From the NCBI GenBank assembly GCA_040756745.1, contig JBFLYO010000012.1:10429-74428 (forward strand): a stretch of 64,000 nucleotides of DNA, written 5' to 3'. The notes under the pieces are model-generated. The model was not told the DNA's origin, searched no databases, and saw only the letters and a list, made by a program, of their open reading frames with translations. This DNA comes from Bacteroidota bacterium. Its GTDB lineage: Bacteria > Bacteroidota > Ignavibacteria > UBA10030 > UBA6906. A program made the position numbers and the translations under genes. Of this stretch, positions 5,220-18,690 are shown one piece after another (position 1 is the stretch's first letter; every line of letters starts with the position of its first letter).

Positions 5220-6344
5220 GTGAGCACCCAGAAGAAGATCCTCATCGTCTTCGGAACGAGGCCGGAGGCCATCAAGCTGGCCCCCGTGATTCAGGAGCTG
5301 CGGCGGTATCCTTCACAATTCCGCGCTCGGGTCTGCGTCACGGCCCAGCACCGGGAAATGCTGGACCAGGTGCTGTCCCTCTTCCGCATTCCTGTTCACC
5401 ACGATATGAACATCATGCAGCGGGGACAGTCGCTTGAGGAGGTGACCTCACGCGTCCTGCTGGGCATGAAAGCGATACTGGAGGATGAACGGCCGGATGT
5501 CATGATGATTCAGGGGGACACCACCACTGTCATGGCTGCTTCCCTCGCTGCATTCTATGCCGGCATTCCGGTAGCTCATGTTGAAGCAGGGCTTCGTACC
5601 TGGAACAAACGAAGCCCGTTTCCCGAAGAAATCAACCGTGTCATTGCCACGCACCTCTCGGACCTGCACTTCGCGCCGACGCAACAGGCCCGCGACAATC
5701 TCCTCCGTGAAGGGATCGACCCTCGAAGGATTCACGTCACGGGAAATACCGTCATCGATGCGCTTATGCATGTGCGAAAAGGCCTGCGGGTGCGGCGAGG
5801 ATACTTTGAGCGGATGTTCCACGACGTCGATTTTCGACGGAAAATGATCCTGGTGACGGGCCATCGGCGTGAGAACTTCGGGGAAGGTTTTCTCAATATT
5901 TGTGAGGCGATTCGCGACGTTGCGATCCGCCACCCGGAGCTGGAGATTGTTTACCCCGTACACTTGAACCCCAACGTTCAGAAACCGGTCCGGTCACTTC
6001 TCAACGGATATCCGAACATCCATCTGCTTGAACCTCAGCCCTATGCACCGTTCGTCTTCCTCATGGATCGGAGCGCGGTCATCCTCACGGACTCCGGCGG
6101 TGTGCAGGAGGAGGCGCCATCGCTCGGAAAGCCGGTGCTGGTGATGCGCAACCATACGGAACGGCCGGAAGCGGTGAAGGCGGGCACTGTCCGGCTGGTG
6201 GGCACCTCACGACGGCAGATTATCGCGGAGACCGAACGATTGCTGACCGACCGGCGGGCGTACCTTGCGATGAGCCGGGCACACAATCCATACGGCGACG
6301 GTACGGCGTCGCGGAGGATAGTGAGGATCCTTAGGAGAGCATGA
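5220..6344 (+). CDS. wecB: UDP-N-acetylglucosamine 2-epimerase (non-hydrolysing)
   Basis: Epimerase_2 family hallmarks (KILIVFGTRPEAIKLAPV…, HVEAGLRTWN, VTGNTVIDAL, LTDSGGVQEEAPSLGKPVLVMR). GTG start. Confidence 0.9.
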   Translation: MSTQKKILIVFGTRPEAIKLAPVIQELRRYPSQFRARVCVTAQHREMLDQVLSLFRIPVHHDMNIMQRGQSLEEVTSRVLLGMKAILEDERPDVMMIQGDTTTVMAASLAAFYAGIPVAHVEAGLRTWNKRSPFPEEINRVIATHLSDLHFAPTQQARDNLLREGIDPRRIHVTGNTVIDALMHVRKGLRVRRGYFERMFHDVDFRRKMILVTGHRRENFGEGFLNICEAIRDVAIRHPELEIVYPVHLNPNVQKPVRSLLNGYPNIHLLEPQPYAPFVFLMDRSAVILTDSGGVQEEAPSLGKPVLVMRNHTERPEAVKAGTVRLVGTSRRQIIAETERLLTDRRAYLAMSRAHNPYGDGTASRRIVRILRRA

Positions 6345-6345
6345 T

Positions 6346-6373
6346 GAGATTGAGATCAAGATTGAGATTGAGG
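6346..6373 (+). repeat. Hexanucleotide microsatellite (GAGATT GAGATC AAGATT GAGATT GAGGGT), 5 units
   Basis: Period-6 tandem repeat containing a GATC site. It begins 2 nt after the wecB stop codon. Confidence 0.85.
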
Positions 6374-6410
6374 GTGCGAAGCCTGAGCTACCGACGCGAT
6401 CCTCCTCAGC

Positions 6411-6461
6411 CTTGACCTTAACCTCAATCCTTAACCTTAACCTCGATCTCGATCTCCATCT
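6411..6461 (-). repeat. Second, longer period-6 tract, inverted relative to 6346-6373 (minus strand reads GGAGATCGAGATCGAGGTTAAGGTTAAGGATTGAGGTTAAGGTCAAGG)
   Basis: About 8 degenerate GAGATY/AAGGTT hexamers with two GATC sites. Together with the first tract it forms an imperfect inverted repeat across a 37-nt spacer, ending about 20 nt before the GT1 start codon. Confidence 0.8.
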
Positions 6462-6483
6462 TACTCTCGCTCTTTCCCGGCTA

Positions 6484-7776
6484 ATGCAAATCTTCATCTT
6501 TTCTCCCATCCCCTACTCTTTCCTCCACCAGCGTCCGCAGAAACTCGCCGACCAGTATGTCGAGAAGGGGCACCAGGTCACGTTCATCGAGCCGTGTGGG
6601 CTGACGGAATACCTCTCTGGACGAAAGAAGGGACTCCCGTTGCTCGTCATTCGCTCCGTCTGGTACTTCTTTCTTGGTCTCGCCGCCATAGTCATCCCGC
6701 GTATGCTCAGAAAGCCGGCTCTACGTGGAGACGGGGATGAACAAGGGGAGGGGCCGAAGATCGCCTCCATGCCTATCATTGTGCCGAACAACCGTGTCAA
6801 TTCAGCCATGATGGAGCGGCTCAACGCGTCAATTTACCGGCAGGCGATCAGGGGACTGTTCCGGCACATTGACCCCAACGAGGAAACATTGGCGATTGTC
6901 GAGAATCCCCTCTGGGGACTAGTGCTTCAACGAGGCGATTTCACGAGGCTCGCCTATGACTGCATCGACGAGATCAGTCTCTTTGCGGGCCGTGGTTCGG
7001 TTGAGCGCATGGAGTGCTACGAACGCCGGCTGATCGAAATGTCAGACGCAGTCTGTGTGACCGCAGAAAAGCTTGAAGAAACCCTTAGGCCGAAGGTCCT
7101 GGGACGGCCGCTTGTACGTCTTCCGAACGGCGTCGACTATGACTACTTCCAGCGGAGGATCCAGGAATGCGGCCCGCCGGATGCCCTTGCCGGCGTGCGC
7201 CGCCCGATCGTAGGGTATGTCGGCGTGCTGCGCAACTGGATGGACTACGCACTCGTCGAATACCTGGCCAGAACTCTGACGCAGGTATCGTTCGTTCTGG
7301 TCGGACCGGTTGATTTCGAAAACCGACTGGAGTCCATAAGGAAGATCCCGAACGTGATTCTTATGGGAAGGAGAGAATATCGCGACGTGCCTGCATTTAT
7401 CAATGCGTTTGATGTCTGCGTCATTCCGTTTCTGCCTGGACCGGTTTCGAACACGACAAACCCCGTTAAGCTCTTCGAATACTTTGCGCTCGGCAGGCCT
7501 GTGGTGTCAACGCGTCTGCGCGAGTTGGAAAAGTTTGCTGACCAGGGGCTCCTCCGAATGGCAGACAATCGGGAGGAATTCGCATCGGCCGTCACCGATG
7601 CGCTCGCCGAGCGCACGCCCGGGGTAAAGGAGATGAGGAAAGAGGTGGCGCGGGCGCATTCGTGGAAGTCGATTGCTGATCAATTGTTTGCCGTTGCGAT
7701 GTCACGCGAAGACTCACCGCCAAGGCGGAGAGGCGCAGAGGGAAAATCGAATTCGCACATCACGTCCAAAGGTTGA
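6484..7776 (+). CDS. Glycosyltransferase family 1 (GT4-like)
   Basis: C-terminal GT-B nucleotide-sugar binding fold (…VGYVGVLRNWMDYALVEYLA…FDVCVIPF…NPVKLFEYFALGRPVVST…). Start moved to the ATG at 6484 (MQIFIFSPIPY…); the track's upstream extension only translates the hexamer repeats (LNLNLDLDL). Confidence 0.8.
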   Translation: MQIFIFSPIPYSFLHQRPQKLADQYVEKGHQVTFIEPCGLTEYLSGRKKGLPLLVIRSVWYFFLGLAAIVIPRMLRKPALRGDGDEQGEGPKIASMPIIVPNNRVNSAMMERLNASIYRQAIRGLFRHIDPNEETLAIVENPLWGLVLQRGDFTRLAYDCIDEISLFAGRGSVERMECYERRLIEMSDAVCVTAEKLEETLRPKVLGRPLVRLPNGVDYDYFQRRIQECGPPDALAGVRRPIVGYVGVLRNWMDYALVEYLARTLTQVSFVLVGPVDFENRLESIRKIPNVILMGRREYRDVPAFINAFDVCVIPFLPGPVSNTTNPVKLFEYFALGRPVVSTRLRELEKFADQGLLRMADNREEFASAVTDALAERTPGVKEMRKEVARAHSWKSIADQLFAVAMSREDSPPRRRGAEGKSNSHITSKG

Positions 7777-10095: not shown

Positions 10096-11052
10096 ATGAA
10101 CGCCGCCCGACGTCCGGATGTATCGATCGTCTTCACGCACTGGAACGTCCGTGACCTCCTCCGGAACTGCCTCATTTCGTTGAAGGAAAAAACTGTCGGT
10201 CTCACCTACGAGATCATCATCGTTGACGATGGCTCCACCGATGGGAGCGTTGAGATGATCAAGAGGGAGTTCCCGGAGGTGAGGCTCGTCGAGAATGGCA
10301 CGAACATCGGCGTGGCAAAGGCGTACAACAGGGGGGCAGCCCTGGTCACCGGCCGGTACATGCAGATGCTCAATACGGACATGGTGCTGGTGAACAATGC
10401 CATCAAGATTTTGATGGAGTTTCTTGAAACGCACCCTGAAGCAGGCGCGTGCGCAGGGAAATTACGGAACCCGGATCTCTCAACGCAGATCTCATACGGA
10501 TCCTTCCCGAGTCTTCTTCAGGGATTCGCGGATGCGTTCGGCCTCCGACATCTGCTCCCGTTCGTGCGCTGGCCGCTCGCCGGGGTCTGCCCCGACGACG
10601 CACAAACGGAACCGCTGGAAGTCGAGTACCTCTCCGGCGCGGATATGCTGATCCGAAGCGAAGTGATCGAACGGATCGGGTTCTTTGATGAACGGTATAC
10701 GAGCTATTGCGAGGAAACCGACTTCTGCTACCGCATCAGGCATGAGTCGCCGTGGAAGCTCTATTATGTGCCTCAGGCCGAAATCATCCACTTCGGGGGT
10801 CAATCCTTCAGCAAGGTTCCGGAATACCGTCTTCGTCTCATGTATTCTGGCTACGACAAATTTTTCACGAAGCATCATGGCGAGGCGTACTCGTTCCTGA
10901 CACGCTTCCTGTATGCTCTGCGGTTTGTGCGGCGGTGGATCGTGGCGCGAGTCGCTTATGCCTTCAGACCCGACGAGTCACACAAGTGGGCCGTGACGGA
11001 GGCGTCGTGGCATATCCGGTATGCGCTGTTCCCGCAAGAAGGGAGGACGTAG
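10096..11052 (+). CDS. Glycosyltransferase family 2
   Basis: GT-A fold with VSIVFTHWNVRDLLRNCLISL, the DxD-type motif IIIVDDGSTDGS, and …SGADMLIRSEV…. Confidence 0.85.
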   Translation: MNAARRPDVSIVFTHWNVRDLLRNCLISLKEKTVGLTYEIIIVDDGSTDGSVEMIKREFPEVRLVENGTNIGVAKAYNRGAALVTGRYMQMLNTDMVLVNNAIKILMEFLETHPEAGACAGKLRNPDLSTQISYGSFPSLLQGFADAFGLRHLLPFVRWPLAGVCPDDAQTEPLEVEYLSGADMLIRSEVIERIGFFDERYTSYCEETDFCYRIRHESPWKLYYVPQAEIIHFGGQSFSKVPEYRLRLMYSGYDKFFTKHHGEAYSFLTRFLYALRFVRRWIVARVAYAFRPDESHKWAVTEASWHIRYALFPQEGRT

Positions 11053-11083
11053 GTTGAGATCGAGATTGAGATCGAGATCAATC
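11053..11083 (+). repeat. Hexanucleotide microsatellite GTTGAG ATCGAG ATTGAG ATCGAG ATCAATC, i.e. (GAGATY)4 with three GATC sites
   Basis: Same repeat unit as 6346-6373. It begins 1 nt after the GT2 stop codon (TAG 11050-11052). Confidence 0.85.
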
Positions 11084-11112
11084 TTCCTATTGGATAAATG
11101 TAAGAGGGCCCA

Positions 11113-11544
11113 ATGTCCGGATCTTTCATCAAGCGACACCCGCTCAGGTTTCATGAGGATGACCGTGGCGTCAGATATAACGACATCTTCCCCATCGGGC
11201 AGGGAGACGTCAATGCGACGGTCGTTTATCCAGGCGCCCTCTCCGCTTGGCACCGTCACCAGCTGCAGGACGACTACCAGATCTGCGTGAAAGGGGCGCT
11301 CAAGTTCGGCTTCTGCGACAAGCCCGCCGCTCAGGGAGGGACGGTGGAATGGGTGTATTCCAGCGAACGGAGTGCGAAGGAAGGGGCTCTGTTCATCCCA
11401 CGGGGGATCTGGCATGGCTATTACAATTTCACCGATGAGATCGCGATCGTCCTCTACTGGCTGACAAGCAAGTACAACCCGAAGGACGAGGAGAGGATGA
11501 CGATCGAGAACATGGGCTTTGATTGGATGCGGCGTGCAAAGTAA
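11113..11544 (+). CDS. FdtA/WxcM-like cupin, a probable dTDP-4-keto-6-deoxyhexose 3,4-ketoisomerase
   Basis: A 143-aa cupin with the WHRH His motif and a …IPRGIWHGYYNF… β-barrel. The size and motifs match the FdtA/QdtA family; an RmlC-like epimerase cannot be excluded. Confidence 0.6.
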   Translation: MSGSFIKRHPLRFHEDDRGVRYNDIFPIGQGDVNATVVYPGALSAWHRHQLQDDYQICVKGALKFGFCDKPAAQGGTVEWVYSSERSAKEGALFIPRGIWHGYYNFTDEIAIVLYWLTSKYNPKDEERMTIENMGFDWMRRAK

Positions 11545-18025: not shown

Positions 18026-18244
18026 ATGCTGAAAGAGATAGACATGGATATTGACGAAATCAAGTCTGCAATTGCATCGCTCCCGACCGACCAGCGGAGG
18101 AAGGTTGCGATGTATATTTTGGAACTCGAGAAGAAGCATCTCGAAGAGACAGTGGGCCCGCAGATCAAGGAAGACATCCAGGGGGTGTCGAAGGTCCTTC
18201 AGGAAGCATTGGAGAAACTGAAGCGGTTTGCGGGGAAATCGTAA
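18026..18244 (+). CDS. Hypothetical small acidic protein (72 aa)
   Basis: ORF with a Lys/Glu-rich predicted helical sequence and no recognisable motif. Confidence 0.4.
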   Translation: MLKEIDMDIDEIKSAIASLPTDQRRKVAMYILELEKKHLEETVGPQIKEDIQGVSKVLQEALEKLKRFAGKS

Positions 18245-18336
18245 CGGCGGCAGTTGACTTCGGTCCGGTCTTGTTGCAGAACCCGGACTCATCTTGCTTT
18301 CCCAACCGTTGCTGCTTATCTTTACGGTTGTCAAAA

Positions 18337-18365
18337 GTCAATTGTCCATCGTCAATTGTCAATTG
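18337..18365 (+). repeat. Three tandem copies of GTCAATTG(TC) immediately upstream of tRNA-Arg
   Basis: GTCAATTGTCcatcGTCAATTGTCAATTG. Each unit contains the CAATTG palindrome, and the array ends 3 nt before the mature tRNA 5' end. Confidence 0.7.
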
Positions 18366-18368
18366 CAC

Positions 18369-18443
18369 GCCCTCGTAGCTCAGTATGGATAGAGCGACGG
18401 TTTCCTAAACCGCAGGTCGGCAGTTCGACTCTGCCCGAGGGCA
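18369..18443 (+). tRNA. tRNA-Arg (anticodon CCT)
   Basis: Cloverleaf by manual folding: acceptor GCCCTCG/CGAGGGC, D-stem GCTC/GAGC, anticodon loop TTCCTAA (U33, CCT, A37), T-loop TTCGACT, discriminator A. CCA is not encoded. Confidence 0.85.
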
Positions 18444-18447
18444 CACA

Positions 18448-18545
18448 GAATTTCGAAATGCGGATTGCGGATTGCGGAATTGGTTTTGCATGACGCATAA
18501 GTGAGATTCACCTAAGGTAGGCTGGAAGGCCCGAGGCGAGGGGCC
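18448..18545 (+). repeat. Copy A of a duplicated ~95-bp element beginning with a heptamer array (GAATTTCG AAATGCG GATTGCG GATTGCG GAATTGG)
   Basis: About 75% identity to copy B, with shared blocks TGCGGATTGCGGAAT, GGTGAGATT and GGCCCGA. Confidence 0.7.
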
Positions 18546-18598: not shown

Positions 18599-18690
18599 GG
18601 AATTCGGAATGCGAATTGCGGATTGCGGAATAGGCTTTGAATGATGCATTGGTGAGATTGTCCTGAGCGAGGCCCGAAGGGCCGAGTGCA
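18599..18690 (+). repeat. Copy B of the duplicated element (GAATTCG GAATGCG AATTGCG GATTGCG GAATAGG …)
   Basis: Direct repeat of 18448-18545 with the same heptamer array and downstream conserved blocks. Confidence 0.7.

Follow-up and report, generated by a model that had tools for sequence, protein, structure and literature searches.

The two hexamer tracts studied here lie between wecB and the first glycosyltransferase (GT) gene of a polysaccharide gene string in a Bacteroidota bacterium MAG. Coordinates refer to the window, by which we mean the whole 64-kb stretch of DNA that was analysed. Between 3852 and 18005 every gene reads on the + strand, and neighbours are separated by very few bases or overlap; the order is corC-like gene, wecB, GT, flippase, methyltransferase, GT2, cupin-like gene and further sugar-modifying genes. 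The cupin-like gene was named by synteny with a related genome (L114), whose product matches dTDP_sugar_isom. A canonical terminator with a GC stem and a T run is located past nuoI at ~3780. Within the string, sizeable gaps are present only at 6345-6483, in the region past 7776 and at 11053-11113, and hexamers occupy two of them. The locus is a single public record: one NCBI MAG supplies the sole member of the GT cluster, and exact-protein look-up returned no second contig with the exact wecB (V or M start), GT or nuoI protein. The features of the locus are as follows.

5220-6344, + strand: wecB (UDP-GlcNAc 2-epimerase), the upstream gene (Pfam Epimerase_2, E 1.8e-123)
6335-6469, + strand: whole predicted hairpin, with an outer GAGAG/CUCUC stem (RNA fold)
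6346-6375, + strand: purine-rich arm of five degenerate hexamers, GAGATT GAGATC AAGATT GAGATT GAGGGT (sequence reading, period-6 and inverted-repeat detection)
6376-6403, no strand assigned: spacer and apical region of the predicted hairpin, GCGAAGCCTGAGCTACCGACGCGATCCT, holding one GATC (sequence reading, fold)
6404-6461, - strand: arm that is pyrimidine-rich on the + strand, about eight hexamers of GAGATC/GAGGTT/AAGGTT/AAGGTC type read on the - strand (sequence reading, repeat detection)
6484-7776, + strand: GT4-type glycosyltransferase, the downstream gene, starting at ATG 6484 (Pfam Glyco_trans_1_4; 100% match to MEW6510653.1, 430 aa)
7713-7745, + strand: remnant of an octamer-type purine arm, CACCGCCAAGGCGGAGAGGCGCAGAGGGAAAA, at the GT/flippase junction (repeat detection, comparison with relatives)
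11054-11079, + strand: solo tract (GAGATY)4, with the hexamers GAGATC GAGATT GAGATC GAGATC at 11056-11079 (repeat and pattern scans)

The wecB gene stops at TGA 6342-6344, followed by a second in-frame TGA, and the GT start at ATG 6484 is backed by the 100% identical 430-aa NCBI protein MEW6510653.1 from a Bacteroidota bacterium MAG. No obvious Shine-Dalgarno motif was seen upstream of this ATG. The gap between the two genes measures 139 bases. An earlier note on this DNA had described two inverted period-6 tracts filling the whole gap around a 37-nt spacer. Both tracts are present, on the + strand at 6346-6375 and on the - strand at 6404-6461, beyond shuffle expectation, and the first begins 2 nt past the wecB stop, just as described. 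The spacer, however, measures ~28 nt (6376-6403), and the tracts cover 116 of the 139 bases, leaving 22 nt (6462-6483) before the GT start.

Both arms consist of degenerate RAGRTY hexamers, and the units are mixed across the arrays (GAGATT, GAGATC, AAGATT, GAGGGT, GAGGTT, AAGGTT, AAGGTC and AAGGCT). The reverse complement of 6404-6461 reads (AGATG) GAGATC GAGATC GAGGTT AAGGTT AAGGAT-T GAGGTT AAGGTC AAGGCT GAGG, which bears out the count of about eight hexamers on this strand, with one 1-nt phase slip among them (AAGGAT+T). Tandem Repeats Finder reported period-6 arrays at 6345-6372, 6410-6443 and 6442-6461, as well as a 19-nt super-repeat at 6410-6448, and a repeat finder identified inverted arms of 28 nt at 6346-6373 and 6429-6456 that are 79% complementary. 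The + strand of 6404-6483 is rich in C and poor in G (32 C and 7 G of 80), and the next 40 nt hold 19 C and 0 G.

We then assessed the abundance of the hexamers in the window. The two-unit pattern GAGATYGAGATY, with at most 1 mismatch, had 10 matches compared to 2.25 +/- 1.55 in shuffles, a count reached by 0 of 100 shuffles, and 8 of the 10 matches sit in two places, the wecB/GT gap and 11056-11079. A stricter scan for three consecutive RAGRTY units found only three arrays in the 64 kb, two in the wecB/GT gap and one at 11056-11079. This solo tract has no inverted partner. It begins 3 nt past the stop of GT2 (gene 10096-11052), ends 34 nt before the next ATG (~11114), and lies 4.6 kb downstream of the wecB/GT tracts in the same gene string. 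The dispersed copies in the window thus amount to three arms at two loci within 5 kb, with 0 in the other ~53 kb. As the hexamers of the window are confined to the polysaccharide gene string, a role specific to this locus is conceivable. Further short tandem arrays were noted in non-coding DNA of the window, namely heptamer arrays (TTGTCAA, TGCGGAT) around a tRNA, and we take the presence of such arrays to mean that the lineage tolerates short tandem repeats.

Coding readings of the gap were examined and rejected. The GAG-ATT frame (EIEIKIEIEG...) continues into GT and is free of stops from 6325 on, with no ATG, GTG or TTG before 6412; an earlier GT start in this frame was rejected, the 430-aa NCBI protein beginning at 6484. 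A 24-codon ORF, MMRLRSRLRLRVRSLSYRRDPPQP, from an ATG overlapping the wecB stop has nothing comparable in relatives. A 100-aa ORF on the - strand (6207-6509) is antisense to the 3' end of wecB and built of the repeat.

The inverted arrangement had been suggested to form a long cruciform or an RNA hairpin. Folding of 6335-6490 as RNA predicted a long hairpin on either strand, at -48.2 kcal/mol (z -4.1) for the + strand and -59.3 kcal/mol (z -4.5) for the - strand, and no shuffle was as low in either case. In the predicted fold, the wecB stop is found at the base, and the stem closes ~15 nt short of the GT AUG at its 3' end. Given what extrusion requires, a DNA cruciform is unlikely for arms that match at 79% and lie 55 nt apart. 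On the + strand, the 28 aligned arm positions comprise 22 Watson-Crick pairs, 3 G.U and 3 A.C, and the - strand is the mirror image, indicating no strand preference. Between the arms, agreement is complete at the 14 fixed hexamer positions but limited to 8 of 14 at the variable ones. These findings indicate that the arms are complementary because they share the motif, rather than through a recent inverted duplication or pairing that has been maintained, and the variable positions, together with 3 G.U and 3 A.C on either strand, give no sign of selection for RNA pairing. Searching Rfam 15 at the gathering score returned only a tRNA in the whole window; at a permissive threshold, the gap gave only weak matches to plant miRNA-precursor hairpins, far below threshold.

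The earlier note had also proposed that slipped-strand mispairing changes promoter spacing and that GATC sites couple this to Dam-type methylation. Perfect repetition at period 6 extends over no more than 14-15 nt (2.3-2.5 copies), and at period 12 it reaches 25 nt (2.1 copies), in the tract at 11056-11079. A long, perfect, homogeneous tract apt for frequent slippage is therefore absent, with at most 2.5 perfect copies of any hexamer. Consensus scans, which an unusual promoter could escape, covered both strands of 5900-6900 for sigma-70-like promoters and the surroundings of the gap for the Bacteroidota -7 motif (TAnnTTTG), and found neither. The tracts lie outside both flanking ORFs and outside any promoter motif found. 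No intrinsic terminator with a GC-rich stem and a T run was detected in 5900-6900, and terminators of this form occur elsewhere in the window, for example after 3750, 41240 and 57025. The four GATC sites were all located (6354, 6398, 6445 and 6451), that at 6398 lying in the spacer, outside the hexamers. Four sites in 116 nt exceed the ~0.9 expected from the window density, but over the 64 kb GATC occurs 499 times (1 per 128 nt), a count that is twice the composition expectation and level with the Markov expectation of 514, so the four sites are best seen as a by-product of the repeat unit. Neither the change of promoter spacing nor the Dam-type coupling is supported by these results.

To place the gap in an evolutionary context, GT homologues were collected (177 at E <= 1e-20) and the surrounding contigs were compared. 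Ten more distant relatives (L119-L128; 52-56% identity, with L128 partial at 71% over 41 residues) have no wecB/GT gap: wecB ends in overlap with the GT start or directly beside it (..GGCTGATG.., ..GTTGACG..). In the closest clade (59-66% identity), by contrast, every member has a gap, and the wecB C-terminus of the gap clade, the window included, is ~4-6 aa shorter than in the no-gap relatives. The contents of the gap differ among members, being 139 nt of hexamers in the window. L114, which is fully syntenic with the window from nuoG onward, carries a 100-nt octamer-type hairpin, CACCGCGGAGACGCAGAGGCGCAGAG / CCTCTGCGTCTCCGCGGTG, at -41.7 kcal/mol, with the purine arm ACCGCAGAGGCGCAGAGAG and the pyrimidine arm CCTCTGCGTCTCCGCGGTG; the gap sequences of this octamer-type family are identical in three independent samples (L114-L116). 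L118 has a nested double hairpin of ~200 nt from the same family (CACCGCGGAGACGCAGAGGCGCAGAG / CCTCTGCGTCTCCGCGGTG; -93 kcal/mol), while only a purine arm is present in L129 (61 nt) and L130 (33 nt); the gap of L131 holds two GC-rich hairpins, and that of L117 a pyrimidine-rich stretch of 58 nt. No hexamer array was present in any relative examined, and no orthologous hexamer hairpin was found among them.

The same pattern extends to other junctions. In both the window and L114, repeats occur at the wecB/GT, GT/flippase and GT2/cupin junctions; the window has hexamers at the first and the last and an octamer remnant at GT/flippase. This remnant (7713-7745) belongs to the repeat family that fills junctions in relatives, and the last ~20 GT codons read through it as the C-terminal tail of the protein. 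Octamer-type copies were found at the GT/flippase junction of L114, L118, L129 and L130, and at GT2/cupin L114 has a full octamer-type hairpin where the window has the solo hexamer tract. Whether the hexamer arm is homologous to that of the octamer family was also considered, and the idea was rejected, since no alignment extends beyond purine richness.

At all seven junctions examined for the start of the purine arm, which are of the wecB/GT and GT2/cupin type (two in the window, two in L114 and one each in L118, L129 and L130), the arm begins 0-5 nt past the upstream stop. A hairpin is not required at these junctions, given that L129, L130 and the window tract at 11056-11079 have single purine arms. 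The position of the purine arm next to the stop, together with a wecB that is 4-6 aa shorter, is consistent with insertion into the extreme 3' end of wecB. The simplest history suggested by these sequences would be an insertion at this site in the clade ancestor, or repeated insertions, followed by turnover of the repeats. The abutment to the stop codon would then be a consequence of where insertion is tolerated and not a designed feature. A possible relic of the old wecB end was seen before the GT start (CCGGCTAATG, compared to CCGGCTGATG in the no-gap relatives), which is suggestive but too short.

We also investigated where the motif occurs outside this lineage. A scan with GAGATYGAGATYRAGATYGAGATY, using one genome per species, returned at least 113 stretches in many bacterial phyla and some archaea. 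The 117 tracts in 113 loci that were listed divide into 60 within long ORFs, 51 in intergenic DNA and 6 in partial overlap with an ORF, and the ORF-internal tracts are mostly GAGATC in GC-rich genomes. No rule of orientation or position emerged for (GAGATY)n among these matches, in which every arrangement of neighbours occurs. Also among the matches listed, three MAGs, from Bacteroidetes (L027), Chitinispirillaceae (L059) and Anaerosolibacter (L087), have inverted RAGRTY/RAYCTY pairs that fold into long hairpins. The genes around these pairs are arranged divergently, convergently or in tandem, which argues against a common intercistronic role. A rule that the purine arm comes first was tried and dropped, as five cases (the window, L027, L037, L059 and L087) against two (L049 and L110) are not significant. 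The idea that (GAGATY)n might be restricted to surface-polysaccharide loci thus held within the window, where the hexamers keep to the polysaccharide string, but failed outside it, where the listed matches span many phyla with about half in ORFs. As judged from these matches, the hexamer motif is a widespread microsatellite rather than a signature of polysaccharide loci in general. Literature searches by sequence, with hexamer dimers and with the octamer family, returned only primers or nothing.

Taken together, the tracts resemble an ordinary repeat insertion that has decayed, placed at a repeat-collecting junction, rather than a switchable promoter. We favour, with a probability of roughly 55%, the reading that they are a lineage-specific, self-complementary short tandem repeat insertion at a permissive junction, which forms a long imperfect RNA hairpin and resembles REP/BIME elements in its effect. 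In this lineage, wecB and the first glycosyltransferase would originally have overlapped and were probably translationally coupled. The few intercistronic junctions of the polysaccharide string would be the permissive sites of the clade, taking up hairpin-forming purine/pyrimidine repeat families that vary by genome, with hexamers in the window genome. As neither a promoter nor a terminator signature was found, the element is most likely transcribed by read-through within a corC-wecB-GT... transcript, which we infer from the gene arrangement. Once transcribed, it would fold into a long imperfect hairpin with its base at the wecB stop and its 3' end ~15 nt before the GT start, and such a hairpin could buffer or tune the relative expression of the flanking cistrons. 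It might do so as a barrier to 3' exonucleases or as an RNase III site separating the upstream and downstream parts of the transcript. Alternatively, ribosomes terminating at 6342-6344 could melt the base of the stem and free the stretch that precedes the GT start by 15-44 nt, which would retain wecB-GT coupling for a start without a visible Shine-Dalgarno motif. The element may equally be close to neutral, a status that is almost as likely as a tuning role. What the sequences show is the anatomy of the element, its predicted fold, its insertion history and the absence of switch features, whereas its transcription and any regulatory role are deduced from these.

Going further in that direction, the tracts may be purely neutral filler, that is, a decayed microsatellite without any RNA or expression effect that is tolerated at a permissive junction, a possible reading that we hold to be less probable. 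It accords with the turnover of gap content among close relatives, with the near-random rate at which variable positions match between the arms, with the other short arrays in non-coding DNA of the window, and with a motif that, among the matches listed, is scattered over many phyla, about half in ORFs and in any orientation. However, a hairpin of -48 to -59 kcal/mol between a stop and a start lacking a Shine-Dalgarno motif would be unlikely to remain invisible to ribosomes and RNases, and some insert has been kept at the wecB/GT junction in every member of the closest clade.

RNase III accepts stems of the size class of more than 20 nearly continuous pairs, to which the predicted stem belongs. 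It is conceivable, though unlikely, that the locus works as a post-transcriptional rheostat like that of hmw1A, with RNase III cleaving a hairpin in the GT leader and slow changes of repeat number shifting expression. A mechanistic precedent exists in H. influenzae, where the (ATCTTTC)n repeat in the hmw1A/hmw2A 5'-UTR forms one arm of an RNase III-processed hairpin (PMC12721329), and the outline here matches: a repeat arm pairs with a complementary arm in a predicted hairpin just upstream of a surface-structure gene, in a leader whose transcription the gene arrangement suggests. The hmw1A repeat, however, has 11-63 perfect, conserved heptamers in nature with documented length variation (PMC12721329), whereas the units here are few and degenerate, with at most 2.5 perfect copies compared to at least 11, and the gaps of relatives hold unrelated sequences or a single arm.

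More doubtful still is a broader version, according to which inverted RAGRTY arrays recur independently in distant phyla, as in the window MAG and the Bacteroidetes, Chitinispirillaceae and Anaerosolibacter MAGs. Within operons, these would form hairpins like that of the hmw leader, cut by RNase III or melted by ribosomes, and arm length, altered by rare slippage, would set the ratio of wecB to the downstream polysaccharide genes.

In a contingency locus, hexamer slippage would shift how a GT promoter is spaced or phased, with an added epigenetic layer from Dam-methylated GATC sites; we regard this as very improbable. Tandem hexamers do lie directly upstream of a surface-polysaccharide glycosyltransferase, the motif is restricted within the window to the polysaccharide gene string, and GATC is denser in the tracts than in the window. 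These points are outweighed by the low number of perfect copies, the lack of a sigma-70 or Bacteroidota promoter motif on either strand, and the by-product nature of the four GATC sites, GATC as a whole being at Markov expectation. In addition, the genes of the string are tightly spaced and point the same way, the ancestral state is a stop/start overlap, and the gap sequences of the three independent L114-type samples are identical, albeit with another repeat family.

Least probable of all are a protein-dependent attenuator (TRAP/HutP-like, reading GAG triplets), a Rho-dependent attenuator with a rut site masked by the 5' arm, and an invertible DNA segment. In their favour are the GAG/AAG triplets recurring every 6 nt, the C-rich, G-poor 3' stretch, and the fact that Bacteroidota invertons typically have inverted repeats ahead of polysaccharide genes. 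Against them, the triplets number only 4-5 per arm, no gene for a candidate binding protein or recombinase adjoins the locus, the 28-55 nt between the arms are too short for a promoter, with none predicted on either strand, and the relatives lack the hexamers.

If the reading of an ordinary insertion at a permissive junction is true, little changes: it would be one more case of gene-dense operons tolerating inserts only at cistron junctions, and mainly when these fold on themselves, with related genomes filling the same junctions with different repeat families. It also carries a caution, as GATC microsatellites beside surface-polysaccharide genes do not amount to a phase switch without perfect runs, a promoter and population data. 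If instead the cross-phylum hairpin reading were true, repeat-built RNA hairpins would tune operons more generally than the single Haemophilus case suggests.

We finally compared the element with known systems. Heterocystous cyanobacteria have heptamer arrays called STRRs (short tandemly repeated repetitive), a term used in PMC2670836 and others. STRRs are not known as inverted pairs flanking a spacer. The tracts share with them tandem arrays of 6-7 nt that lie largely in non-coding DNA, and the window has heptamer arrays too, but phylum, unit and period all differ. Contingency-locus promoters include those with TA repeats between -35 and -10 of hifA/hifB and those with the poly-G/poly-C of Neisseria porA/opc. 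Tandem repeats adjoining surface-structure genes are common to both, but the contingency repeats are long, perfect, homogeneous and placed in a defined promoter, whereas the tract here is degenerate and has no detectable promoter. The nearest analogue to have been dissected by experiment is hmw1A/hmw2A, where a simple repeat array likewise serves as a hairpin arm just upstream of a cell-surface gene and the route from repeat to expression is post-transcriptional; the element here differs in that its degenerate hexamer reaches at most 2.5 perfect copies and in lying between two cistrons instead of behind a mapped promoter.

REP/BIME elements and REPIN doublets of proteobacteria (PMC3116915, PMC3337134) also have features in common with the tracts. 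Like them, the wecB/GT element is an extragenic inverted doublet with a short spacer that folds into a hairpin, single copies occur as well, the solo tract at 11056 being the counterpart of a REP singlet, and the insertions occupy intercistronic gaps near stop codons with lineage-specific sequence families. Also shared are the effects to be expected, namely on how stable the mRNA is and how the flanking cistrons are translated. In contrast to REP, the arms here are tandem hexamer arrays instead of a unique palindromic unit of 20-40 nt, neither arm has the GTAG-type 5' end of REP/RAYT systems, the 64 kb hold only three arms, which all belong to a single gene string, and no arm is a copy of its partner, as 8 of 14 variable positions match. 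The element is therefore not a member of the REP/REPIN family, although we liken it to these elements in its effect.

Three cistron junctions of one operon (wecB with the glycosyltransferase gene, the glycosyltransferase with the flippase gene, and GT2 with cupin) were found to be filled by an octamer-type repeat family in several related metagenomic genomes. The repeat has the form (N-CAC-R-GAG)x3, for example CACCGCGGAGACGCAGAGGCGCAGAG, together with its complement, and the family occurs at the junctions either as full hairpins or as single arms. At the glycosyltransferase-flippase junction, the reading frame of the glycosyltransferase runs on through the repeat, which thereby forms the C-terminal tail of the protein. 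No match to the octamer-type sequences was found in the literature searched by sequence. The repeats were located as follows, L114, L118, L129 and L130 being related loci of the closest clade:

L114 5586-5670, 6931-6990 and 11140-11265, octamer-type repeats
L118 2600-2780 and 4028-4178, octamer-type repeats
L129 and L130, octamer-type repeats at the junctions
Window 7713-7745, remnant of an octamer-type repeat

The non-coding content of the window was also considered around the tRNA-Arg gene, which lies with heptamer arrays in a largely non-coding 1.1-kb stretch:

18328-18365, (TTGTCAA)x5 array immediately before the tRNA
18369-18444, tRNA-Arg(CCT) gene
18459-18478, (TGCGGAT)x3 array after the tRNA
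18600-18629, second TGCGGAT array, ~145 nt beyond the first

Both TGCGGAT arrays are followed by a similar segment of ~35 nt (..TTTGCATGACGCATAAGTGAGATT.. and ..TTTGAATGATGCATTGGTGAGATT..), and array and segment look like a duplicated unit 3' of the tRNA. A small putative ORF (MDIDEIKSAIASLPTDQRRKVAMYILELEKKH..., 18045-18240, plus strand) stands isolated in the interval that separates the last gene of the polysaccharide string from the tRNA.

Short-word composition was assessed across the whole window. CTAG was nearly missing (7 observed against 28 Markov-expected and 235 composition-expected), TTAA and TATA each fell below the composition expectation and agreed with the Markov expectation, and GCGATCGC occurred in 9 copies against 1.7 composition-expected.

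Inverted hexamer-array hairpins of the RAGRTY / RAYCTY type that the window carries were also present in other genomes:

L027 4923-5035, hairpin in a Bacteroidetes MAG
L059 2946-3065, hairpin in a Chitinispirillaceae MAG
L087 2542-2660, hairpin in an Anaerosolibacter MAG

In L087, two small hairpins lie between the hexamer arms, and one of these is terminator-like. Within the window, more than 120 nt of the plus strand (6404-6529), running from the 3' arm of the predicted wecB-glycosyltransferase hairpin into the start of the glycosyltransferase gene, are C-rich and G-poor, with 32 C and 7 G at 6404-6483 and 19 C and 0 G at 6490-6529. A base composition of this kind is linked to sites of Rho loading.
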